Below are positions 18,596-32,590 of a DNA stretch of 64,000 bases, piece after piece (position 1 is the stretch's first letter; each line of letters opens with the position of its first letter). The notes beneath the pieces were generated by a model, which worked only from the letters and a program-made list of their open reading frames with translations, had not been told where the DNA came from and made no database searches. The position numbers were made by a program, and so were the translations under genes. The DNA comes from Roseibacillus sp. GTDB lineage: Bacteria > Verrucomicrobiota > Verrucomicrobiia > Verrucomicrobiales > Akkermansiaceae. The stretch lies in the NCBI GenBank assembly GCA_965242925.1, contig CBDEUM010000030.1:128001-192000 (forward strand), in the 5' to 3' direction.

Positions 18596-21500
18596 TTGAT
18601 GATCACGAAGAAGAAAAATCTGGAACTTCTTATCCTGGCCTCGGGAACGCTCGCTCTGGCCACCACCTCAGCGCACTCCGGCACTGTCCCAACCTGGAAC
18701 TTCGGAAATAATGGTGACGGCACGACCCAGGGATGGACGGTGACGAGTGGCCATTTCGCTAATGATGGCAACGGTATTGAGCCCGCTCAGGCCAATGGCA
18801 ACAGGGCTCACGACGCCGCTCACCCGGTTGCGGTCCTGACCTCCCCGACCATCAATTTCGGCAGTGTGCATGCGAGCGACAGTGTGATCGATATTCTTTG
18901 GGAAGGGGGACGGGGAAACCAGCAAGACTCCGCCGACCCTGCGAACCTGGCTGCGGTGATGAACTATAACGGCGGCAACACGAACAACACCGGCCAGAAA
19001 GGGGTTGGCTTTCGCAACCTGACCACCGGGGCCTATGATCTTGTCGATTACGACCCCCAAGACGGTGGCGGTATTCAGACCGGTTCATACACCTTGGCTG
19101 ATCTGACCGCAGCGGGCATCGATGTCGGCGCCAGCTACCAGTTGGATTTCTTCACCACCGACGATGGTGGTTGGGGTTGGACTCGATTGAACGAGGTCAA
19201 CCTCGATGCAAATGCGATCGCTCCCGTGGATCCGCCGTCGACAGACAACGACAACGACACCCTCCGCGACACCTGGGAGCAGGCCCAGACAGGCAACCTG
19301 ACCGACCTGGACGGAACGGCCTGGGACGGCAATGGCGTGACCCCCGGACCCGGCGCGGCAACAGGTGACTTTGATGGAGATGGCAGCAGCGACAGCCAGG
19401 AGCAGGACGAGGGAACCGATCCCGCCAATGCCGATAGCGACGACGACGGCTCCAGTGACGGCGAGGAAGCTGACCTTGGCACCAACCCGCTCAATGCCGA
19501 CAGCGATGGAGATGGCCTGCTCGACGGGGTGGAGACCGGCACCGGCACCTTCGTCAGTGCCAGTGACACCGGCACCGATCCCCTCAATCCCGACACCGAC
19601 GGAGACAATGCCTCCGACGGGACCGAGGTCACCCAGAACACCGATCCCAACGATGCCGCCAGCAGCTCCTGTCCGTCCACGCACTTAACCCTGGCACTGT
19701 GCCAACCTGGAACTTCGGAAATAATGGTGACCGCACGAACCAGGGATGGACGGTGACAGTGGCCATTTCGCTAATGATGGCAACGGCATTGAGGCCGCCC
19801 AGGCAAATGGCAACAGGGCTCACGACGCCGCTCACCCGGTTGCCGTCCTCACCTCCCCGACCGTCAATTTCAGCCTCCTCAATGTGAGCGGGACCGGCAA
19901 TGTGATCGATATTCTCTGGGAAGGGGGACAGGGAAACCAGGACGGCATTTCCCCCGACCCTGCGAACCTGGCGGCGGTGATGAACTATAACGGCGGCAAC
20001 ACAAACAACGCCGGTCAGAAAGGCCTCGGGTTCCGTAACCTGACCACCGGGAACTATGATTTTGTCAGTTACGACTCCGAGAACGGTGGCGGAATTCAGA
20101 CGGATTCATTCACCCAGGCCGATCTGGTCGCCAATGGCATCGATCCCGGCGCCAGCTATGAATTGGATTTCTTCACCACCGACGATGGTGGTTGGGGCTG
20201 GACTCGATTGAACGAGGTCAACGTCCATCCCGGCGCAATCGCTCCCGTGGATCCGCCGTCGACAGACAACGACAACGACACCCTCCGCGACACCTGGGAG
20301 CAGGCCCAGACAGGCAACCTGACCGACCTGGACGGAACGGCCTGGGACGGCAATGGCGTGACCCCCGGACCCGGCGCGGCAACAGGTGACTTTGATGGAG
20401 ATGGCAGCAGCGACAGCCAGGAGCAGGACGAGGGAACCGATCCCAGCAATGCCGACAGTGATGATGACGGCCTCACCGATGGGGAGGAAGCTGACCTTGG
20501 CACCAACCCGCTCAATGCCGACAGCGATGGAGATGGCCTGCTCGACGGGGTGGAGACCGGCACCGGCACCTTCGTCAGTGCCAGTGACACCGGCACCGAC
20601 CCGCTCAATGCTGACACCGACGGAGACAATGCCTCCGACGGGACCGAGGTCGTCAATAACACCGATCCCAACGATCCCGCCAGCAGCCCTGCCCGTCCAC
20701 CACTTACCCCTGGCACCGAGCCAACCTGGAACTTCGGAAATAATGGTGACGGCACGATCCAGGGATGGACGGTGACCAGTGGCCATTTCGCTAATGAGGG
20801 CAACGGCATTGAGGCCGCCCAGGCAAATGGCAACAGGGCTCACGACGCCGCTCACCCGGTTGCCGTCCTCACCTCCCCGACCGTCAATTTCAGCCTCCTC
20901 AATGTGAGCGGGACCGGCAATGTGATCGATATTCTCTGGGAAGGGGGACGGGGAAACCAGCAAGACGCCGCCAACCCTGCGAACCTGGCGGCGGTGGTCG
21001 ACTATAACGGTGGCAACACGAACAACGTCGGCCAGAAAGGCCTCGGGTTCCGTAACCTGACCACCGGGAACTATGATTTTGTCAGCTACGATCCCCAAGA
21101 CGGTGGCGGAATTCAGACGGATTCATTCACCCAGGCTGATCTGGTCGCCAACGGCATCGATCCCGGCGCCACCTATGAATTGGATTTCTTCACCACCGAC
21201 GATGGTGGCTGGGGTTGGACTCGATTGAACGAGGTCAACGTCCATCCCGGCGCAATCGGCCCATCTCTCCCGCCGACAGACGACGACAACGACACCCTCT
21301 TCGATACTTGGGAACAGGCCCAGGCAGGCAACCTGACCGACCTGGACGGAACGGCCTGGGACGGCAATGGCGTGACCCCCGGACCCGGCGCGGCAACAGG
21401 TGACTTTGATGGAGATGGCAGCAGCGACAGCCAGGAGCAGGACGAGGGAACCGATCCCACCAATGCCGATAGTGATGATGACGGCCTCACCGATGGGGAG

Positions 21501-23021
21501 GAAGCTGACCTTGGCACCAACCCGCTCAATGCCGACAGCGATAGAGATGGCCTGCTCGACGGGGTGGAGACCGGCACCGGCACCTTCGTCAGTGCCAGTG
21601 ACACCGGCACCGACCCGCTCAATGCTGACACCGACGGCGACAATGCCAGCGACGGGTTTGAGGTGGGCGAAAACACCGATCCGACCGATGTGTTCAGCAC
21701 TCCGGGCCCCCCCGATTTTCTCGGGGTTTGGAACTTCGGAAATAATGGTGACGGCACGACCCAGGGATGGACGGTGACCAGTGGCCATTTCGCTAACGAT
21801 GGCAACGGCATTGAGGCCGCCCAGGCCAATGGCAACAGGGCTCACGACGCCGCTCACCCGGTTGCGGTCCTCACCTCCCCGACCATCAGTTTCAGGAATT
21901 CAAGCATGGCCTCTCCGGTGATCGAAATTGATTGGGAAGGTGGACGGGGAAACCAGCAAGGCTCCCCCAACCCCACGAACCTGGCGGCGGTGATGAACTA
22001 TAATGGAGGCAACACAAACAACATCGGTCAGAAAGGCCTCGGGTTCCGCAACTTGAACACCGGGAACTATGATTTTGTCAGCTACGATCCCCAAGACGGT
22101 GGCGGCGTTCAGACTGAGTCATTCACCCGCTCTGATCTGGTCGGCGGCGGTATCGACATCAACGCCCCCTATGAATTGGATTTCTTCACCACCGACGATG
22201 GGGGTTGGGGCTGGACCCGATTGAACGAGGTGAGGGTCGATGCCACCCTTAATCCCCGGCCCCTGCTCCGTCCCCAGCTACGCATCACGCAGAGTGGCGC
22301 GAACCTCACCTTCGAGTGGGACAGCGAGGCCGGCATGATCTACAACCTGCGCAGCGACGCCGATCTCCAGCCTGAGCCGGCGCTATGGCCCATTCACGGG
22401 ACGAACGAGAACATCGACGCTACACCCCCCCTGAACACCCTCACCATTCCCCTGCCTGACGCCAATGAGCTATTCTTCGTGATCGAGGGATTCCCCAAAC
22501 CTCCGCTGGTACTTTTCGAAGATAACTTCGAATCAGGTGTGGGTGACTGGGTCACGGTTGTCAATGACCCCAGCCGCAATACCCTCTGGGAACTGGGCAC
22601 GCCTTCCGGCAGCACGGGACCGCTCACGGGCGCCGACGGCTCGGCCAACGCCTGGTCCACCAACCAGGGGGACTACGGACCAGACTCGGATATTTCCCTC
22701 CTCTCTCCGCCCATCGACTTCAGCGGGTTGCCGAGCGCGGAGTTGACCTTCGAGGTCTTCCGGGATGCCGACGGATTCGCAGACACCTCGACTGTCCGCT
22801 TCCGCCGGGTCACTGACGGTGTGCAACTGGGGCCGGACAATGCCTTGGACATGGCTCTCTTCGATATCGACTACGAAACCGAGATTATCCAGGTTCCGAT
22901 CGAGGTCCTTAACGAGACCGAGAATGTTCAAATCGAATTCAACTTCGTGAGCGACAGCAGCCTGGATGGCTACAGCGGCCTCTCCATCGACAACGTGAAA
23001 GTGGAAGGCGTCGATCCCTGA
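18596..23021 (+). CDS. Giant secreted repeat protein (~1470 aa if joined): 4 copies of an unknown ~175-aa domain alternating with 3 thrombospondin type-3-like Ca-binding blocks, plus C-terminal domains; frameshifted at ~19668-19758
   Basis: ORFs 18596-19756 and 19746-23021 join when aligned to the intact repeat at 20680-20790; signal peptide; DSDDDGLTDGEE and DTDGD repeats. Confidence 0.8.
18695..22245 (+). repeat. About 1.0-kb internal tandem repeat (3 full units plus a fourth domain)
   Basis: WNFGNNGD codons start at 18695, 19708, 20727 and 21729; long near-identical nucleotide stretches. Confidence 0.95.
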
Positions 23022-23497: not shown

Positions 23498-26400
23498 CTA
23501 CTTGGGAGGCGCACCATTTCCTTGGGCGATCATGCCCCGGACGACGGTCAGATTCCGCCGGGCATCTTTGTGGTCGGGTTGAACCTCGAGGGCATACTCA
23601 AGATAAGTAACTGCGCGAGCGAGTTGCCCTTGTTGGGCAAGCGTCATTCCGAGGAGGGCATTGAAATTGGCCGAGTGGGGATTCTCCGCCACCGCCTTTT
23701 CCAAGCAGGCTTGGGCGTCGGCCCATCTCTTCTGTGCGATCAAAAGACCGCTCAATATTTTGTGGTTCTTCTCCTCTCGCGGATTGCTCTTAATGGCCTG
23801 CTCGAGATGGCCCGCAGCCTCGCCAGTCTTTCCCTTCTCGATAAGAAGGGTAGCCAGATTGGTGTGGGATCGGGCGTGATCAGGCTGAACACGCAACGCC
23901 TCACGGAAACTGGCTTCGGCCAGCGCGTGTTTCTTCTGGGAGATATAGGAAATTCCCAGATTGTTATAGGGCCCGGCATTCTCGGGAAACATCTTGATCA
24001 GTTCCTGATTCTCGGCGGCGGCAGATTGAGCGTAACCGCGCTGTTGCAGGTAGGTTGCAAAACGATATCGTGCCTCGAATTGGTTGCGTCGGCGCGCCAC
24101 GGTTGGCACTGGCAGGATGCGTCCAGGGACCGCAGCCGAGCGGGCAAACCGTTCACGCAGGGTGCCTTTCGAATGCTGGGTGTCGGCCGCAAGGTCGTCG
24201 ACATTCAAGCGCCCCTTGTAGATGACGGAGATGCGGCCATTGCCGTCGATCAGGAAACTGACCGGAACCGGCAAGGGCTGCGAGCTGGTGATCAGGTCAT
24301 TGTGGATCTTCTGGAGGTAGGCGATCAGCTTCCTGGGAGCTTGACCGGTGGTGAAGGGCAATTTGAGACGTTTGGCAAGTTTGCGGGCGACCGATGCGTC
24401 CACGGAGTCATCCAGCTGATCAACCGCCAAGGCGAGGACCTCAATGCCTGCGTCACGAAGCTCGTCATTCCGCTCGGACAGTTCCTCCAATTCGCCCACA
24501 CACGGCGTGCACCAACTGGCCCAGAGATTCAGTAAGATCGATTTCCCCTTCCCGGTTGGGAACTTCCGCACCTCACCGGAGAACGTCTGGTAGCTCAAAT
24601 CCGCCATCGGAAGCAAGGTCGCGAGCGGAATGCGGGCCGTGCTGTCCGGGTCAGGCAGGGTGACAGGCACGGGCGAAATTGCGGTCTCACGGCGTTTGGT
24701 GGCTGCTGGCACCGCCACCCCGCTGCCCTGAACCAGCCGATGGCGTCGATCGATTTCCAGACCGGTGAATGTTTCGATCTCGCCGCCCGGCCATCGCACA
24801 CGCACCAATTCGATCTTCTCTGCTCTGCCCAGCCCGAAATGCATCCACTTGGTGGATTGGGAGAGGAAGGAATCGCCGGCTCGCAGCGTCTTGCTCAGCG
24901 CCGGTCGCGTTGAATTACTCGAAGATCCGCCGGCCAGGACGACCTCCACCCGCGCGCCAATCGCGTCCCGGTTTGTGGTTCCGCCAGCTCCCTGCAGGCG
25001 CAGGGCGAGATGGTGGTTCTCCGACGGGACATCGTTGCGGAAAAATCGGAGCCGCGGGGCGTTGCGATTGGAAATCCACACGTCAAGGTCGCCATCGTGA
25101 TCCCAATCGACGGTGATCAGCGCTCGTCCATCATCCGGCAAATCGATTCCCGATGTCGCCGAGATGTTGGCGAATCGAGCGACAGGTGCTGCGCCCGCCA
25201 CAGTCGAAGCCGTGGTCGTGTTCAGGAAGCAGCAATTCCGCTCCCTGCCACTGTAGGAGCGCCCACGGCGAATCATTTCGCCAAATGTGGCGTTGGCCCG
25301 ATCCAATTCACTCGATCGCACTTCGTTGACATCGTTCAGGGAGCGCGACACGACCTGCCGCCAGTAGAAACTTCACAAGTCATCCGGATCGTCGCCGGTA
25401 ATATTCCCGTTGGCCACTGCCAGGTCCTCCCATCCATTGTTATTGATATCGATAAAGCTGGTCCCCCAGGCCCAGCGGGCCCTGGCCACGCCGGCCTCCT
25501 CGCTCACGTCCTCGAACGGGCCGTTATCGAGATTCTTCAGCAGAGTGCTGCCACGCGCAAAACGTTGAAGCCGCGTCCGGACCTCCGGTGATGCATTCGG
25601 TTTAAACTGCTCCTGAAAGGTGATTCGGTTGCCGGCCGACGAGAACATGTTGCTGATGTAGACGTCCATCCAGCCGTCGCGATTATAGTCACCCCAGGTA
25701 ACCGCCATTCCCGAAGCGCTGTCCTCGACGTCGGCTTCGCCAGCAACGTCTACAAACTTGCCCCCGTTGTTACGGTAGAGGCAATTCCGTCCGAAGTCAT
25801 TGGCGACGTAGAGATCCTGGTCGCCGTCGTTGTCGTAATCTTCCCAGGCCGCGGCCAAACTCCAGCGCCCGTTGTTGCTGTCCAGCCCGACCTCGGCAGT
25901 CACCTCACGGAAGCTCCACTTGCCTTGATCTGTTGTTTCATTGCGGAACAGGCTGTTGTAGCCGCCGACGTTGGAATCGTGATAGACAAACCGTCCTGTA
26001 ACGACGCCTCTCGATTCCGACTCAGGACCCGCCGAGCCATTGCGCCAATAGGTGCAGACGTAAAGATCCAACCGGCCATCCTGGTCGTAGTCCGCTGCAC
26101 TCAGAGACATCAGATCGTGGGCGGTCGGCAACAACGTCCGATAATCAAAACGGCCGTCGCCGCGGTTGGCGGCCAGCACGATGCCCCCCATAATTGCGAC
26201 CGCGAGGTCCTGGTCCCCGTCGTTGTCCAGGTCCACCAGGAGGGCACTGCGCGATCCCTCGAGCCAATTCACGCCCGCCACTTTTCCGATTCGTCGCGCA
26301 GGGTGCCGTCGGCGTTCTGAACATAAAGCCTGTTAGGCAGGCCATCCTCCTGACAGAGATAGAGATCGTCCAATCCATCACCGTTGACATCACCAAGCGC

Positions 26401-27288
26401 CACCCCCGGAATGCCGAGCCAGAAAAAATATTGCGTATCCTGAGTGCGGTGCAGCCAGTGACTGAAACCACGGCCAATCTGTTGCTGGTAGGAGGCGTTG
26501 GATCCCAATACCGACTGAGTGCAATCGGAAAACAGGGTTCGCCCGCCGGTGCGGGAAGTCACCTGCTCGACATCGCTCACGTCGAGCTGCAGGAGCAGCG
26601 GCCGCGAGTCGCCGGCACTCATGGCCCAACGCGCACGCCACGTCGCGTGCTGTTCGATGACGCCCATTTCCGTGATCCCGGAAATCGCCACATACTGCTG
26701 GGTGGTAAACGATTCGATCTCCTGCTGGACCCGGAAAACCTTCACCTCGAATCGCAGTTCTGCGGCGCCTTCAAGAAGGGTTCCGATCTCGCCAATTGCG
26801 GCCTCGATCTCTGCGATACCTCGTCGGGGGGCTGCATCCGGTTGGGCCGCCATGCGTTCGACGGTGAGGGTGGAATCCGTATAGACCACCTCAGATCCCT
26901 TCGGTTGCAGCCCATTAAAAGAAAAGCCCTCCGCGACGATTTGTCTCAGAGCCGCATCATCCATTTGCCCGGGATGCAGAATCATCTTACCGAGGCGCTT
27001 GAGTTGCTCCTTGGCATGTTCACTGAGCGCCTCGCTGGGCCATCCGTCGGCGCTGGGATCATCCAAACGTTCCATCGGAACGCTGGGCGGTGAGGGCACC
27101 TGGTACAATTGGCCGGTTGAGGCACCGGATTCCAAGACTTCATCCGAGCGATTGGCCAGAATCATTACTATGATTGCCGCCACCGCCAAAACAGCGATGG
27201 CGACTCCGACGAGCACCCGGCGTCCCTGCTTCGATGAGCGAAGATTGGGTTCGGATTGTTGAGTGATGCGGTTATCCGACGATTTCAT
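23498..27288 (-). CDS. Membrane-anchored FG-GAP/CRTAC1 - ASPIC/UnbV - TlpA-like thioredoxin - TPR protein; in-frame TGA at 25375-25373 (candidate selenocysteine) and a frameshift near 26283
   Basis: Three consecutive ORFs: TM anchor, DxD/NxDG FG-GAP repeats, NRDAIGARV and HFGLG ASPIC motifs, WASWCTPC, C-terminal TPRs. ORFs 25373-26281 and 23498-25351 are in the same frame, separated only by TGA plus 7 sense codons. Confidence 0.8.
25345..25361 (-). promoter_or_regulatory. Candidate bacterial SECIS hairpin
   Basis: GCGGCA-GGUCG-UGUCGC (6-bp stem including one G-U pair; loop starts with G), beginning 11 nt after the UGA. Confidence 0.6.
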
Positions 27289-27468
27289 GGCAGGATCCTC
27301 AGAAGAGAGCCCTGATAGCTCTCGGGACGAAAAATGCGAGGACGTTTCCTTCTTATTACCTGTCGATCACTCTCGTTATCTCATTAACGCTTACGGCACG
27401 GCCCGAGGCACCTGAAAGAGCGATGGGCAGGAGGAACCCAGAGGATGCAGAATAAAGATCTGCCACCC

Positions 27469-27489
27469 GCCAAGGAAAGTTTCCTTGGC
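27469..27489. promoter_or_regulatory. Perfect inverted repeat GCCAAGGAAA-G-TTTCCTTGGC, possible operator (copy at 28843-28861)
   Basis: 10-bp arms with a 1-nt spacer, ~180 nt upstream of the FG-GAP gene start. Confidence 0.35.
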
Positions 27490-27528
27490 CCCTCCCCCTC
27501 ATTCAGGTTCAGCCCCCCTTTTTGGCAC

Positions 27529-27564
27529 AAAAAAACCGGGGCGGCCTGTGAAAGCCGCCCCGGT
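27529..27564 (-). terminator. Rho-independent terminator of PEP-CTERM gene 1
   Basis: accggggcggc/gccgccccggt stem followed by a U-tract on the minus strand. Confidence 0.9.
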
Positions 27565-27592
27565 GTAAAATATCGTCAACGCTGTCCGGCCA

Positions 27593-28285
27593 CTAGCGGC
27601 GGCGGCGGAGCAAGGCGAGTCCGCCCAAGGCCAAGAGGGCCATGGCAGATGGCTCGGGAATTGCACCGATCGCATTTGCATCAAGGTTGACCTCGTTCAA
27701 GCGAGTCCAACCCCAACCACCATCGTCGGTGGTGAAGAAATCCAACTGGTAGCTGGCGCCGGCATCGATGCCCGCTGCGGTCAGATCAGCCAAGGTGTAT
27801 GAACCGGTCTGAATACCGCCACCGTCTTGGGGGTCGTAATCGACAAGATCATAGGCCCCGGTGGTCAGGTTGCGAAAGCCAACCCCTTTCTGGCCGGTGT
27901 TGTTCGTGTTGCCACCGTTATAACCGGTCACCGCAGCCAGGTTCGCAGGGTCGGCGGAGTCTTGCTGGTTTCCCCGTCCCCCTTCCCAAAGAATATCGAT
28001 CACACTGTCGCTCGCATGCACACTGCCGAAATTGATGGTCGGGGAGGTCAGGACCGCAACCGGGTGGGCGGCGTCGTGAGCTCTGTTGCCATTGGCCTGA
28101 GCGGGCTCAATGCCGTTGCCATCATTAGCGAAATGACCAGCTGTCACCGTCCATCCTTGGTTGGTGCCATCTCCGTTATTTCCGAAGTTCCAAGTCTGCA
28201 CTGTCGCACCGTTCGCGGATACAGACAGAAGAGCAATGGTTCCCGCCGCGAGGGCGATGCCTTTTGTAAGTGGGTTCTTAATCAT
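27593..28285 (-). CDS. PEP-CTERM surface protein 1 (230 aa)
   Basis: Signal peptide, one copy of the repeated domain, IPEPSAMALLALGGLALLRRRR sorting signal. Confidence 0.93.
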   Translation of the reverse strand: MIKNPLTKGIALAAGTIALLSVSANGATVQTWNFGNNGDGTNQGWTVTAGHFANDGNGIEPAQANGNRAHDAAHPVAVLTSPTINFGSVHASDSVIDILWEGGRGNQQDSADPANLAAVTGYNGGNTNNTGQKGVGFRNLTTGAYDLVDYDPQDGGGIQTGSYTLADLTAAGIDAGASYQLDFFTTDDGGWGWTRLNEVNLDANAIGAIPEPSAMALLALGGLALLRRRR

Positions 28286-28563
28286 TTCTTTGGGTAATAA
28301 TGGGTCGGTGCATTCAAGCGGTGACGGCCCTTTTTTAAAGCGGGAGGGGTTCCAGACAAGACTTTTCTTACGAGAATTTCAGTCCACCGCCATGCCTTGG
28401 TATCTAGATGTTCTTTTGAACAGAGTTCTGCCCCCTCATTTTGAATGAATTTGCGGTGCATACCATACACAGAGAGACTGGAAAACGGCTTTCCACTCCT
28501 GATTTATTGGAAGCCCAGGGGCGAGACCAAGCCATCCACCCGAACAAGGGGAAAGGAACCAGT

Positions 28564-28690
28564 CCTCTCATCGCTTTTCCCGGAACTCAGGATTCGGCTT
28601 CATGGCCTCCGCTTCCACCCTTGCAGGACTTCGTTCAACTCGTTCACCAGCTTCGTCTCCTTCGCCGCCAGGTTCCTTTTCTCCCCGATA
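28564..28690 (-). pseudogene. Decaying duplicate of the sulfatase 3' end
   Basis: Matches 29940-30078 but with an internal deletion of ~13 nt. Confidence 0.85.
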
Positions 28691-28901
28691 GCTCTCGGGA
28701 CGAAAAATGCGAGGACGTTTCCTTCTTATTACCTGTCGATCACTCTCGTTATCTCATTAACGCTTACGGCACGGCCCGAGGCACCTGAAAGAGCGATGGG
28801 CAGGAGGAACCCAGAGGATGCAGAATAAAGATCTGCCACCCACCAAGGAAAGTTTCCTTGGCCCCTCCCCCTCATTCAGGTTCAGCCCCCTTTTTTGGCA
28901 C

Positions 28902-28937
28902 AAAAAAACCGGGGCGGCCTGTGAAAGCCGCCCCGGT
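28902..28937 (-). terminator. Rho-independent terminator of PEP-CTERM gene 2
   Basis: Same hairpin and U-tract as at 27529-27564. Confidence 0.9.
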
Positions 28938-28969
28938 GTAAAATTATCGTCAACGCTGTCCGGCCACTA

Positions 28970-29662
28970 CTAGCGGCGGCGGCGGAGCAAGGCGAGTCCG
29001 CCCAAGGCCAAGAGGGCCATGGCAGATGGCTCGGGAATTGCACCGATCGCCATTTCATCAACGCTGACCTGGTTCAAGCGAGTCCAACCCCAACCACCAT
29101 CGTCGGTGGTGAAGAAATCCAACTGGTAGCTGGCGCCGACATCGATGCCGTTGGCGACCAGAGCAGACAAGGGGTATGAACCGATCTGAAGTCCGCCACC
29201 GTTCTCCCAATCGTAATCGACATGATCATAGGCCCCGGTGGTCAGGTTACGGAACCCGAGGCCTTTCTGGCCGGCGTTGTTCGTGTTGCCGCCGTTATAA
29301 CCGGTCACAGCAGCCAGGTTCGCAGGGTCGGCGGAGCCTTGCTGGTTTCCCTGTCCCCCTTCCCAGCTAATATTGACCACAAAGTCGCTCGCATGCACAC
29401 TGCCGAAATTGATGGTCGGGGAGGTCAGGACCGCAATCGGGTGGCCGGCGTCGTGAGCTCTGTTGCCATTGGCCTGAGCGGGCTCAATGCCGTTGCCCTC
29501 ATTAACGAAATGACCAGCTGTCGTCGTCCATCCTTGGTTGGTGCCATCTCCGTTATTTCCGAAGTTCCAAGTCAGCATTGTCGCACCGTTCGCGGATACA
29601 GACAGAAGAGCAATGGTTCCCGCCGCGAGGGCGATGCCTTTTGTAAGTGGGTTCTTAATCAT
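28970..29662 (-). CDS. PEP-CTERM surface protein 2 (230 aa)
   Basis: Paralog of 27593-28285 with identical signal peptide and PEP-CTERM tail; start ATG 29662. Confidence 0.93.
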   Translation of the reverse strand: MIKNPLTKGIALAAGTIALLSVSANGATMLTWNFGNNGDGTNQGWTTTAGHFVNEGNGIEPAQANGNRAHDAGHPIAVLTSPTINFGSVHASDFVVNISWEGGQGNQQGSADPANLAAVTGYNGGNTNNAGQKGLGFRNLTTGAYDHVDYDWENGGGLQIGSYPLSALVANGIDVGASYQLDFFTTDDGGWGWTRLNQVSVDEMAIGAIPEPSAMALLALGGLALLRRRR

Positions 29663-29942
29663 TTCTTTTGGTAATGTTGGGTCGGTGCATTCAAGCGGTG
29701 AAGGCCCTTTTTTAAAGCGGGAGGGGTTCCAGACAAGATTTTTCTTACGAGAATTCCAGCCCACCGTCATGCCTTGGATTATGCTGTTCTTTTAAACAGA
29801 GTTCTGCCCCCTCGTTTTGAATGAATTTGCGGTGCATCCCCTACACCGAGAGACTGGAAAACGGCTTCCCACTCCTGATTTATTGGCAGCCGAGGGCGAG
29901 ACCAAGCCATCCACCCGAACAAGGGGAAAGGAACCAGTCCTC

Positions 29943-31352
29943 TCATCGCTTTTCCCGGAACTGAGGATTCGGCTTCATGGCTTCCGCTCCCACCCTGCGC
30001 TTCCACCCTTGCAGGACTTCGTTCAACTCGTTCACCAGCTTCGTCTCCTTCGCCGCCAGGTTCCTTTTCTCCCCGATATCATCTTCCAGGTCATACAACT
30101 CAAATTCTTCGCGTTCAAGGCACTCGATGAGCTTCCACTTTCCTCTCCGCACGATCGACACTGGCGCACTCTGGGGATGCTTGTTGTAGTGCGGGTAGTG
30201 CCAAAACAGCTCCTTGCGCCTGATATTTCCGGAAGCCTTGACAATCGGGGCCAGGCTGACCCCGTCCACGTGCTGGTGCGGGCGGGAGGGCAGTCCCAGC
30301 ATCTCAAGAATGGTCGGATAGAGATCGTTCGTGATCACGGGGGTCTCGCTGACCCTTCCTTCCCCCTTCACCCCTGCGCCCGCCACGATCAAGGGCACCC
30401 TGATCCCTCCCTCGTAGTGTGAACCCTTGTTGGCGCGCAGCGGATCATGCCTCGTGGCACCGGCGAACCCCCCATTGTCGGAGGTGAATATCACGAGGGT
30501 ATTCCCCGCCAGTTTCAGTTCCTCCAACTTCTCCATCACCCGTCCCACGCTCTCATCCACGCTTGCCACCATGGCGGCATAGACCGGACTTCCCTGCCGC
30601 TCATTCTTGGGAACCTTGTTGAAGCGGGAGACCAACTCCTTCCTGGCCTGCAGAGGCGTGTGTACGGCATAGTAGGGAAAGTAGAGAAAGAACGGTCGAT
30701 CCCTGTTCTTCTCGATCAGCGCCAGGGACTCGGTAGTCAGGCGGTCGGTGAGGTATTCCCCCTCCCTGCCATCCGGCAGGGTGATTTTCTGCACCCGTTC
30801 CCCGGTGGTCGGGATCTTCCAGCTCCCCTTGTAGGGATAAAAATAATGCCCGGGCGCCCCGTGTTCACTTCCGCCCACATTCACCTCAAACCCGTGGTGG
30901 GCCGGCAACGAAAAGGGCGGACCTCCCAGATGCCATTTCCCCACATGCAACGTCCGGTAGCCGGCCTCGCGCAGGGCCTCGGCCAGGGTCACCTCCTCCA
31001 GCGGCAGGCTACGCAGGAAACGGCCTTCGCGCATCCGGTGTCCGCTTGCACTCCAACGACCAGCCGGCAGCCACTGGGTCATCAGGTTCCGGGCCGGATA
31101 CTTTCCCGTCATGATGCTGGCCCGCGTGGGCGTACACACCGCGCAGGCCGCGTAGGCGTCGGTGAACCGGATGCCACGGGCCGCGAGTCGGTCGATATTG
31201 GGGGTGCGATAGTAGGTGCTCCCCTGGCATCCCAGGTCCCTCCAGCCGAGATCATCGACCAGAAAGAGGATCACGTTCGCCCTCTCAGCCGCCATTACGG
31301 CCGCTGGCTGCAGAAACAGACAGACGGCAACAAAGAGAACTGCACGCGCCAT
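29943..31352 (-). CDS. Formylglycine-dependent (S1) sulfatase, secreted
   Basis: NVILFLVDDLG, CTPTRASIMTG (CxPxR), GKWHLG, FTSDNG, EGGIRVP; signal peptide from ATG 31352. Confidence 0.95.
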   Translation of the reverse strand: MARAVLFVAVCLFLQPAAVMAAERANVILFLVDDLGWRDLGCQGSTYYRTPNIDRLAARGIRFTDAYAACAVCTPTRASIMTGKYPARNLMTQWLPAGRWSASGHRMREGRFLRSLPLEEVTLAEALREAGYRTLHVGKWHLGGPPFSLPAHHGFEVNVGGSEHGAPGHYFYPYKGSWKIPTTGERVQKITLPDGREGEYLTDRLTTESLALIEKNRDRPFFLYFPYYAVHTPLQARKELVSRFNKVPKNERQGSPVYAAMVASVDESVGRVMEKLEELKLAGNTLVIFTSDNGGFAGATRHDPLRANKGSHYEGGIRVPLIVAGAGVKGEGRVSETPVITNDLYPTILEMLGLPSRPHQHVDGVSLAPIVKASGNIRRKELFWHYPHYNKHPQSAPVSIVRRGKWKLIECLEREEFELYDLEDDIGEKRNLAAKETKLVNELNEVLQGWKRRVGAEAMKPNPQFREKR

Positions 31353-31411
31353 CACCTCGCAGCCTGCACGGTTCCTGCCCTCTTGCCACTCCAAAGGATC
31401 CAGCTCTCCGC

Positions 31412-32590
31412 CTACCAGTCGCGCAACAGTCTCCAGCAATACCACTGCATCCGGGGGAGGTGAAACGGCCCCTTGAAATGATTGCCTTTGGCCGGGTTGG
31501 AAATCCTTCCGTCGCGGTGCACATAACCGAACCACTCCCCGTGTTCGCGATCGGCAAAGGTCCGGTGAGCATAGTCATGCACCAGACGATGCCACTCAGC
31601 ATAACGATCTTCTCCCGTCATCTGGTAAGCCAGCAGGGTGGCAGTGATGGCCTCGCAGTGCGGCCACCAGAACTTCATGTCGTGCCAGTATTCCTGGACC
31701 GGCTTGCCATGCACATCAACGAAGTAGAACAACCCGCCGTGTTCCTCGTCCCATCCCCGCTTCCACATGTAGTCAAGCATCCGGCACCCGAGCGCTGTGA
31801 GCTCCGCGTCTCCTCCCCGCCGCTTTGCCTCGTGCAGGATGAACCAGGCCGCCTCGATCGCGTGCCCGGGATTGAGGGTCCGCCCGTCCACATGATCGCT
31901 CAATGAACCATCCGGCCCGACCTGCTCGAAAACGCACTCGAGATCATCATTCACGAAGAGACGGATCTCCCCGATGAACTCGTCGATCACTTTCTCGGCC
32001 AACTCATCACCCACGGTCTCCGCCAATTGCTGGGCAACATGCAGGAAAATCATGGGAACCCCGAGCGAGCGGGTCGAGCGCTCCTCCGTCCACTTTGCTT
32101 CCCCGGTCGGCAGGCGCCCCTCGATATACTCCAGGCACAGGCGGAACAGTTGCCGGGCCTGCTCCGTCGAGTCCCCGCAACCCGCGGCCGCCCCGTAGGA
32201 AGCCAGGGCCATGACCGCGAAGGCCTCGGAAAAAAAATAACGCCTTTTGCGAAGCGGCTTTCCCTCCCGCGTGACCAGGAAAAACATGCGGTCATCCTCG
32301 TCAAAACAATGATCGCGCAGGAAATCGACTCCGCTCCGGGCCCCCTCCAACCACTCCGACCGGGGCTCCACCGTCCGATGCAGCGTCGACAGCAGCCAGG
32401 AGAAGCGACCCTGGAACCAGACCGGCTTGTCATCATCGAGCAGGGCCCCGTCCCGTTCCCGCATGGTCAGGTAGCCCCCGTGCGTGGTGTCCAGCGCCCG
32501 GGGCAACCAGAACGGCAGGGTGTCCTCCAGCAGGCTCGTTCGATAGAACGCCCCAAGCTCGCTGAGTTCCTCCTCTTGATATCCCCTCAT
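31412..32590 (-). CDS. N-acylglucosamine 2-epimerase (AGE family)
   Basis: KPVWFQGR, NPGHAIEAAWF, KFWWPHCE, KGPFHLPR motifs. Confidence 0.93.
   Translation of the reverse strand: MRGYQEEELSELGAFYRTSLLEDTLPFWLPRALDTTHGGYLTMRERDGALLDDDKPVWFQGRFSWLLSTLHRTVEPRSEWLEGARSGVDFLRDHCFDEDDRMFFLVTREGKPLRKRRYFFSEAFAVMALASYGAAAGCGDSTEQARQLFRLCLEYIEGRLPTGEAKWTEERSTRSLGVPMIFLHVAQQLAETVGDELAEKVIDEFIGEIRLFVNDDLECVFEQVGPDGSLSDHVDGRTLNPGHAIEAAWFILHEAKRRGGDAELTALGCRMLDYMWKRGWDEEHGGLFYFVDVHGKPVQEYWHDMKFWWPHCEAITATLLAYQMTGEDRYAEWHRLVHDYAHRTFADREHGEWFGYVHRDGRISNPAKGNHFKGPFHLPRMQWYCWRLLRDW

Follow-up and report, generated by a model that had tools for sequence, protein, structure and literature searches.

The minimal selenocysteine insertion sequence (SECIS) of Escherichia coli fdhF is a 17-nucleotide (nt) hairpin that begins 11 nt after the UGA codon. 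Here we describe a similar arrangement in a large gene on the minus strand of a 64,000-nt stretch of a Roseibacillus sp. genome (assembly GCA_965242925.1, contig CBDEUM010000030.1, positions 128,001 to 192,000), which we call the window and whose own positions serve as feature coordinates throughout. An earlier note, made from these letters alone, had proposed that an in-frame TGA in this gene encodes selenocysteine (Sec) in an extracytoplasmic protein combining FG-GAP repeats, an ASPIC domain, a thioredoxin domain and tetratricopeptide repeats (TPRs). From comparison with paralogues, related genomes and independent assemblies, we consider it highly likely that the UGA at 25375-25373 is a Sec codon, recoded via a downstream bacterial SECIS.

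The locus resembles fdhF in that an in-frame UGA is followed by a short hairpin inside the open reading frame (ORF) with GGUC in its loop, and in that tRNA-Sec, selB and selD are present in the genome. It differs in that the stem of the predicted SECIS has 6 bp, no bulged U and a 5-nt loop, and in that the protein, which is predicted to be exported, is unrelated to formate dehydrogenase. The letters GCAGGUC are common to the window hairpin and the minimal E. coli SECIS, and the core given in the earlier note agrees with the letters printed in PMC10945757.

At the protein level, murine CRTAC1 (9etn) shares the combination of FG-GAP repeats and UnbV_ASPIC and is the top structural match of an orthologue model described below. 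However, CRTAC1 is a matrix protein of eukaryotes that lacks Sec, a fused thioredoxin domain and TPRs, and the identity is 17%. The thioredoxin-type domain has the fold and WCxxC motif of the ResA/TlpA thiol-disulfide oxidoreductases and is hit by their NCBIfam models, but with scores far under the cut-offs (TlpA, 50.8 versus 230; ResA, 50.5 versus 170), so that it is a relative rather than an orthologue, and it is here one domain of a 1262-residue protein. The ResA-like WAxxUGC selenoproteins (NCBIfam NF041054) are likewise exported, Sec-using proteins of thioredoxin fold, and their model gives a weak hit (30.8 bits) to the same domain; as the cut-off is 300 bits, the window protein is not a member. 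To judge by its name, that family has Sec in the redox motif itself, whereas the window protein has a CxxC there and its predicted Sec lies about 280 residues upstream, in a propeller. NCBIfam lacks a model for the family as a whole: the models that scored were limited to TPR and thioredoxin ones, and none reached its cut-off.

The sole prior record that we found consists of four candidate rows in Table S9 of Kim et al. 2016 (PLoS One, PMC4807772), which describe the same domains. All four are split into two genes in the annotation; at the site, the closest database hit has G, and bSECISearch found a SECIS in three of the four. They come from a different phylum and are likened to the window family by description. 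In the main text of that paper, ASPIC and FG-GAP go unmentioned. Full-text searches joining selenoprotein or selenocysteine with FG-GAP, ASPIC or UnbV otherwise returned nothing relevant, and term searches showed no trace of the family in two reviews, of 2022 and 2026, or in the deep-Sep paper (FG-GAP and ASPIC in all three, VCBS in the 2022 review and the deep-Sep paper only). The deep-Sep paper states that its method may miss selenoproteins without Cys homologues, a caveat that applies to the family described here. The recoding mechanism is the known bacterial one, and the family is effectively uncatalogued, large, old and multi-copy; the earlier note had not recognized it as a characterized family, but it is not wholly unrecorded, since Kim et al. 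tabulate candidates. The note had also expected standard annotation to split the gene; the rows of Table S9 stand as two genes each, and the database proteins examined were either halves or non-Sec relatives.

One reading frame interrupted by TGA

Around the site the minus strand reads GAC TTG TGA AGT TTC TAC TGG CGG CAG GTC GTG TCG. Upstream, the frame is open from 26332 to 25376 (319 codons) and matches FG-GAP_3 (Pfam, 2.9e-32); downstream, it is open from 25372 to a TAG at 23500-23498 (624 codons) and matches UnbV_ASPIC, AhpC-TSA/Redoxin and many TPR models. These two ORFs (25376-26332 and 23498-25372) form a single frame interrupted solely by the TGA at 25375-25373, as the earlier note had claimed. 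FG-GAP repeats and UnbV_ASPIC both score above the Pfam cut-offs, and they belong to a single chain only if the UGA is read through.

A third ORF, with its ATG at 27288, extends to 26269 (339 amino acids) and encodes a hydrophobic helix at residues 25-45, in a frame that differs from that of the FG-GAP ORF. Disregarding a 2-nt surplus at 26277/26280, discussed below, the whole gene (23498-27288) would run from this ATG to the TAG at 23500-23498 as 1262 codons, one of them for Sec. On its sequence, the gene most likely yields one protein of about 1262 residues, instead of two or three.

Conservation of the TGA codon

In this genome, TGA is present in 13 of 13 homologues that retain the motif around the site (tblastn). 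Seven of the nine close paralogues are single read-through frames of 1176-1399 amino acids, the other two close copies being the window copy and a frameshifted twin near a contig end (C37). Matches were found in 23 of 41 related genomes, among them 18 of 19 congeners, which had 4-21 matches apiece. Among the 150 of these matches that were listed, with 67 further matches beyond them, a single TGA is present wherever the match spans the site; two listed rows without a stop reach only residues 2-145 or 175-296, not the site.

The codon is retained over much greater distances. Scanning one genome per species yielded 196 relatives; TGA was found at this codon in 79 of the best 80 loci, and the remaining one lay outside the search pattern. 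The titles of these loci include marine Verrucomicrobiales, Akkermansiaceae and Roseibacillus, as well as Pirellulaceae, Phycisphaerae, Lentisphaeria, Acidobacteriota and Krumholzibacteriia; a few unlikely taxon labels are probably binning errors. Of 121 Acidobacteriota genomes, 24 had a match, and one TGA was present in 26 of 31 matches (25 of 29 without two unpublished genomes), at the same codon where this was checked, with the unpublished loci left aside. Across distinct segments the count is 99 of 99. Neither TAA nor TAG occurs at the site among the TGA-form sequences examined (the 13 paralogues, 99 segments, best 80 loci and Acidobacteriota loci). The conservation that the earlier note had asked about is thus present, and the mixed stops that it had named as evidence to the contrary were not seen in that set.

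A base-call error, which the earlier note had also raised, is not borne out. We compared contigs from four public runs of four independent studies, comprising three DNA runs (X4, X6 and X13) and one RNA library (X15), over 25200-26500, and these bridge the TGA unchanged; the contigs from the RNA library cannot show transcription. As a single-base feature in a draft metagenome-assembled genome with a second defect close by, the TGA might be suspected to stem from a sequencing error or from a nonsense mutation that arose recently in an ordinary gene, but the same codon in 13 paralogues, in well over a hundred homologues and in contigs of four studies makes this explanation barely credible.

In metagenome assemblies, many contigs of 31-42 nt are stacked exactly on the word formed by the UGA and the hairpin (25345-25385), where word depth is 45-117 versus 4-14 alongside. 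This word breaks assemblies because it is common to very many paralogues and organisms. A number of the copies of this genome are found at the ends of contigs (C28, C37 and C29).

The downstream hairpin and RNA-level constraint

Eleven bases (25372-25362) separate the TGA from the 17-nt hairpin at 25361-25345, exactly the spacing that the earlier note had given. Its arms (25361-25356 and 25350-25345), GCGGCA and UGUCGC, form 6 bp around the loop GGUCG (25355-25351). The case for this candidate SECIS draws on covariation and synonymous sites. When 99 distinct segments of 66 nt are aligned, 97.8% of cells show pairing over the six pairs, and three pairs have changed on both sides; none of 500 column shuffles reached these values. 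Pairing falls to 13-68% when the partner columns are slid, and RNAalifold, without guidance, predicts five of the six. At the fourth pair, the 99-segment set has G-U, A-U, G-C and C-G, and other copies have U-A and U-G. In a subfamily with the peptide KDT-U-SLFWRHVVA the hairpin is GCGCCA-CGUGG-UGGCG, and in distant copies (about 34% identity, with other residues) a different stem, of 6 bp and perfectly paired, encloses a GGUC loop. The covariation proposed as a check in the earlier note is therefore present, with compensatory changes.

As the peptide flanking the site is conserved in non-Sec relatives too, we compared synonymous sites with codon usage in the same genes. A DNA control from non-Sec homologues had only three usable loci, in which the hairpin was lost in one, retained four of six pairs in another and was perfect in the third, too few to conclude from, which is a further reason for the synonymous-site test. 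Counting codons from the UGA, Val +8 is GTG in 100% of cases (background 36%), Ser +9 is TCG in 99% (22%) and Val +7 is GTC in 89% (38%). Arg +5 is CGG in 58% (24%), with CGG and CGA together making up 94% of codons. Immediately beside the UGA, Leu -1 is TTG in 87% (16%) and Ser +1 is AGT in 84% (12%), with TCN never used. Control codons (Thr -4, Gly -3, Asp -2, Phe +2 and Phe +3) are near background. Synonymous sites are frozen around the UGA and the hairpin only, which indicates selection at the level of the RNA. Constraint on the two codons beside the UGA (25371-25378), for which no pairing partner was established, may reflect a context effect on recoding or termination.

Selenocysteine machinery

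The genome encodes a tRNA-SeC with anticodon UCA and a selB above the model cut-off (287.5 bits). Its selD (C14:573853-574776; locus L009 1501-2424) has a single in-frame TGA, in the N-terminal active-site motif; by its sequence, the selenophosphate synthetase of this organism is itself a selenoprotein. Of the genes selA, selB, selC and selD to which the earlier note had pointed, the last three are thus present. As a separate candidate explanation, a genetic code in which TGA is always sense was ruled out, given that most paralogues end in TGA and that the one in-frame TGA of selD lies in its active-site motif.

The presence of the family follows that of selA among relatives. selA was found in 18 of 19 congeners, including the near-identical genome G008, and, across 40 other related genomes, in 21 of 22 with the family versus 4 of 18 without it; the lone exception is 70% complete. 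In Acidobacteriota, selA is present in 17 of 18 TGA carriers (the unpublished G094 left out) and in 100 of the 121 sampled genomes, and is too common there to discriminate.

In the proposed mechanism, the hairpin with its GGUC-containing loop would act as a SECIS during translation and recruit SelB with Sec-tRNA(Sec), anticodon UCA, and the ribosome would insert Sec instead of terminating at the UGA. Read-through could also occur without Sec, by a near-cognate tRNA (for Trp, Cys or Arg) with the hairpin merely stimulating it. The aligned residue is variable in continuous homologues, so that the site tolerates many residues, and selenium in the product has been reached indirectly. We nevertheless judge such read-through very unlikely: the family tracks selA among relatives in the numbers just given, the position of the hairpin and its GGUC loop are as in a SelB-type SECIS, and UGA has been kept over deep divergence although a sense codon would have been simpler.

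Domain organization and fold

Under the Sec reading, the predicted protein would consist, in order, of a membrane anchor, a CRTAC1-like FG-GAP propeller with Sec inside it, an UnbV/ASPIC domain, a ResA/TlpA-like CxxC domain and TPRs. The N-terminal hydrophobic helix (27154-27216, residues 25-45) was read by eye from the translation as a signal anchor; several paralogues instead have lipoprotein-like signal peptides ending in Cys, again judged by eye from translations. FG-GAP/VCBS repeats of the beta-propeller occupy 25376-26332, 5' of the predicted Sec codon (25373-25375), with four stretches matching FG-GAP_3 and a further match to FG-GAP (2.6e-20). An RNCC motif at 25229-25240, placed by alignment with the strand assigned from the orthologue model, starts the next propeller blade. 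UnbV_ASPIC follows at 24740-24964 (PF07593, 1.1e-16), then the ResA/TlpA-like thioredoxin-fold domain at 24227-24592 (AhpC-TSA, 5.5e-12; Redoxin, 9.9e-09) with its CxxC (WCTPC) at 24500-24514, and the C-terminal TPRs at 23549-23968 (TPR_1, TPR_2, TPR_16 and others). All of these features are on the minus strand. The RNCC motif and the WCTPC thioredoxin domain of the earlier note were both located, the latter with Pfam support.

We modelled residues 285-1045 of an intact orthologue from a congener (L029), with U read as C and an alignment of 83 rows (mean predicted local distance difference test score 91.6, predicted template modelling score 0.91). In this model, the predicted Sec is the first residue of a helix (361-371) directly after a strand (356-359), and lies in a two-helix insert between propeller blades, with further blades after it. 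The top Foldseek match was murine CRTAC1 (9etn_A; E 1.7e-27, TMt 0.72, 604 columns), in an alignment that spans the site, and the C-terminal domain of the model matched ResA and TlpA (TMt 0.66-0.80).

The TGA therefore falls within a fold and not between domains, which argues against two genes. If the TGA were a true stop, the halves would be separate, translationally coupled genes in a conserved split; gene callers do report a pair of genes (footnote 1 to Table S9 of Kim et al. 2016, PMC4807772), and there is a GTG 8 codons 3' of the TGA. Such a split is highly improbable, as the site is inside the propeller, with the CRTAC1 alignment running across it and blades following, and as TGA, never TAA or TAG, is found in 99 distinct sequences. 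Moreover, the downstream half would have a ResA/TlpA-type domain but no signal peptide, and 1806 continuous homologues have a sense codon here.

Residues replacing the predicted selenocysteine

These 1806 homologues, which have the same architecture, came from a search with the orthologue region around the site and are proteins of 690-2198 residues. In the best 120 of them the aligned residue was mostly Asn (56 hits) or Ser (16) and Cys in just 6, with a few of the 109 pattern hits being spurious. In 55 aligned non-Sec rows, the residue was N in 13, S in 11, D in 6, E, C and A in 5 each, G in 4, H in 3, R in 2 and Q in 1. The earlier note had asked whether Cys or another amino acid stands at this position in continuous homologues; it is mostly not Cys.

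Other cysteines in the chain were compared between the two groups. The CxxC was kept in all 28 Sec-type rows but in only 17 of the 55 without Sec. In the RNC(C) motif, 24 of 28 Sec-type rows have a Cys, and the first of its two positions was Cys in 31% of non-Sec rows. In a FastTree tree built with the site columns removed, which is unrooted and based on biased sampling, Sec rows are scattered: the label changes at least 12 times, and well-supported branches force 8 of these changes. The pattern fits an ancestral Sec that was lost repeatedly better than one that was gained repeatedly. On Sec loss, varied residues would substitute and the CxxC would often decay.

These alignments are suggestive of a redox relay from Sec to Cys to CxxC. 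We put forward, tentatively and at somewhat less than an even chance, that the protein is an extracytoplasmic selenoenzyme in which Sec would be the reactive centre, recycled via the RNC(C) Cys and the fused CxxC and reduced by a membrane reductant system. About equally tentative, and not quite evenly balanced, is the broader idea that the family represents a new class of exported selenoenzyme, with Sec in a CRTAC1-type propeller at a position where Cys is not conserved, serviced by the CxxC of its own chain, and with an ancestral Sec that has been lost many times.

Weighing the selenocysteine reading

Several observations weigh against Sec at this codon. The fold of the single sequence is unremarkable: a 27-nt piece folds as proposed, at -8.9 kcal/mol, yet with z = -0.55 and 45 of 200 shuffles equal to it; a 41-nt context gives z = 0.31 relative to shuffles; and in a 66-nt context the minimum-energy fold prefers another pairing (z = 0.53). 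The earlier note's hairpin hence folds as drawn, but with no more stability than shuffled sequence, and it is the comparison of sequences that makes the case for it. No Rfam family matched at E up to 10, the two hits, to a microRNA and a snoRNA, being due to chance. Non-Sec homologues, too, conserve the flanking peptide SFFWRQVV, so that nucleotide conservation is partly protein-driven. One Acidobacteriota locus (L154, genome G131) has GAG (Glu) at the Sec position and a perfect hairpin, GCGCCA-GGUCG-UGGCGC; this may reflect recent Sec loss, or the peptide alone may be able to keep the stem.

Further points on the same side come from the genome and from the protein. selA, unlike the other three machinery genes, was not found with models TIGR00474 and PF03841 in this assembly, which is 89.9% complete. 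Cys is scarce at the site in continuous homologues (5 of 55 rows), which is unusual for a selenoprotein. Of 8 independent pairs, about 3.6 show the link between Sec and CxxC in the same direction and none in the opposite one; the median p of 0.125 is not significant. As assembled, the ORF at 26269-27288 closes at a TGA in a frame other than that of the FG-GAP ORF. Finally, whereas the conserved codon, the hairpin and the machinery emerge from comparison, we infer the selenium in the polypeptide rather than observing it directly.

Against these stand the conserved codon, the covarying hairpin, selB, selC and selD, and the agreement of independent assemblies, and together they support the central proposal of the earlier note, that the UGA is read as Sec.

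The upstream frameshift

The earlier note had envisaged an N-terminally anchored protein of about 1260 residues. Its length and anchor fit the 1262 codons found here, but the anchor belongs to the out-of-frame ORF at 26269-27288, a frameshift that the note had overlooked. The orthologue L029 is one uninterrupted read-through frame of 1256 amino acids, and by alignment the window copy is 2 nt longer at 26277-26280. All three DNA runs have one base fewer at 26277 and one fewer at 26280, and T in place of G at 26273; the frameshift site of this assembly is placed at 26273-26285. Without the two bases, the anchor ORF continues in frame into the FG-GAP ORF. Three variants occur among the short contigs of run X13; all are 2 nt shorter than the window, but at different positions, including 26282 and 26285. 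In natural populations this position is a hot spot for indels. A contig from another assembly that is 100% identical (L028/L057) stops at about the frameshift position, and no other stop occurs in the remainder of the gene.

With three DNA runs lacking the two bases, an intact orthologue and an identical contig ending there, the frameshift at 26277-26280 is most likely an artefact of the assembly or the strain at an indel-variable site. Alternatively, the family could consist of true selenoproteins while the window copy is a pseudogene, with an anchored fragment of only about 340 amino acids. The N-terminal ORF is indeed out of frame as assembled, the three variants in run X13 show indel variation at the site in nature, and the second copy on contig C37 is frameshifted too. 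We regard a pseudogene as unlikely, because contigs of three DNA runs from three studies restore the frame, L029 is intact, the identical contig ends exactly at the site, which points to an assembly problem, and the remaining gene is free of stops.

Genomic context

The neighbours of the gene are a gene for a 1091-amino-acid protein with bacterial TSP3 repeats (19746-23021, plus strand) and a sulfatase gene (29943-31535, minus strand). A thiol-redox partner (DsbD or CcdA) was not seen among the scanned ORFs adjoining the gene. Directly 5' of it, at 27310-29268, is a tandem duplication of about 1.37 kb, in which 262 nt are repeated at 99% identity (27310-27571 and 28683-28944) and 300 nt at 89% (27592-27891 and 28969-29268). 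Each unit contains a small gene with a PEP-CTERM sorting signal on the minus strand (27593-28285 and 28970-29770). This could be a real duplication or an assembly repeat.

Implications

For the window itself, the practical result is that one gene of 1262 codons replaces three ORFs, with the frameshift as a probable assembly error. If the UGA encodes Sec, gene callers split large genes by the hundred, in Verrucomicrobiota, Planctomycetota, Acidobacteriota and further phyla, for which selenoprotein counts would then be far too low. To our knowledge, exported bacterial selenoproteins other than formate dehydrogenases are few, and we know of little that explains the otherwise obscure function of CRTAC1-like proteins; such proteins would gain a testable chemistry from a Sec within the beta-propeller and a thioredoxin-type partner built into the same chain. 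With 13 copies in this genome and up to 21 matches in a congener, marine Verrucomicrobiales would be among the bacteria richest in selenoprotein genes, and would account for a hidden share of marine selenium demand that has been overlooked by searches relying on Cys/Sec pairs.

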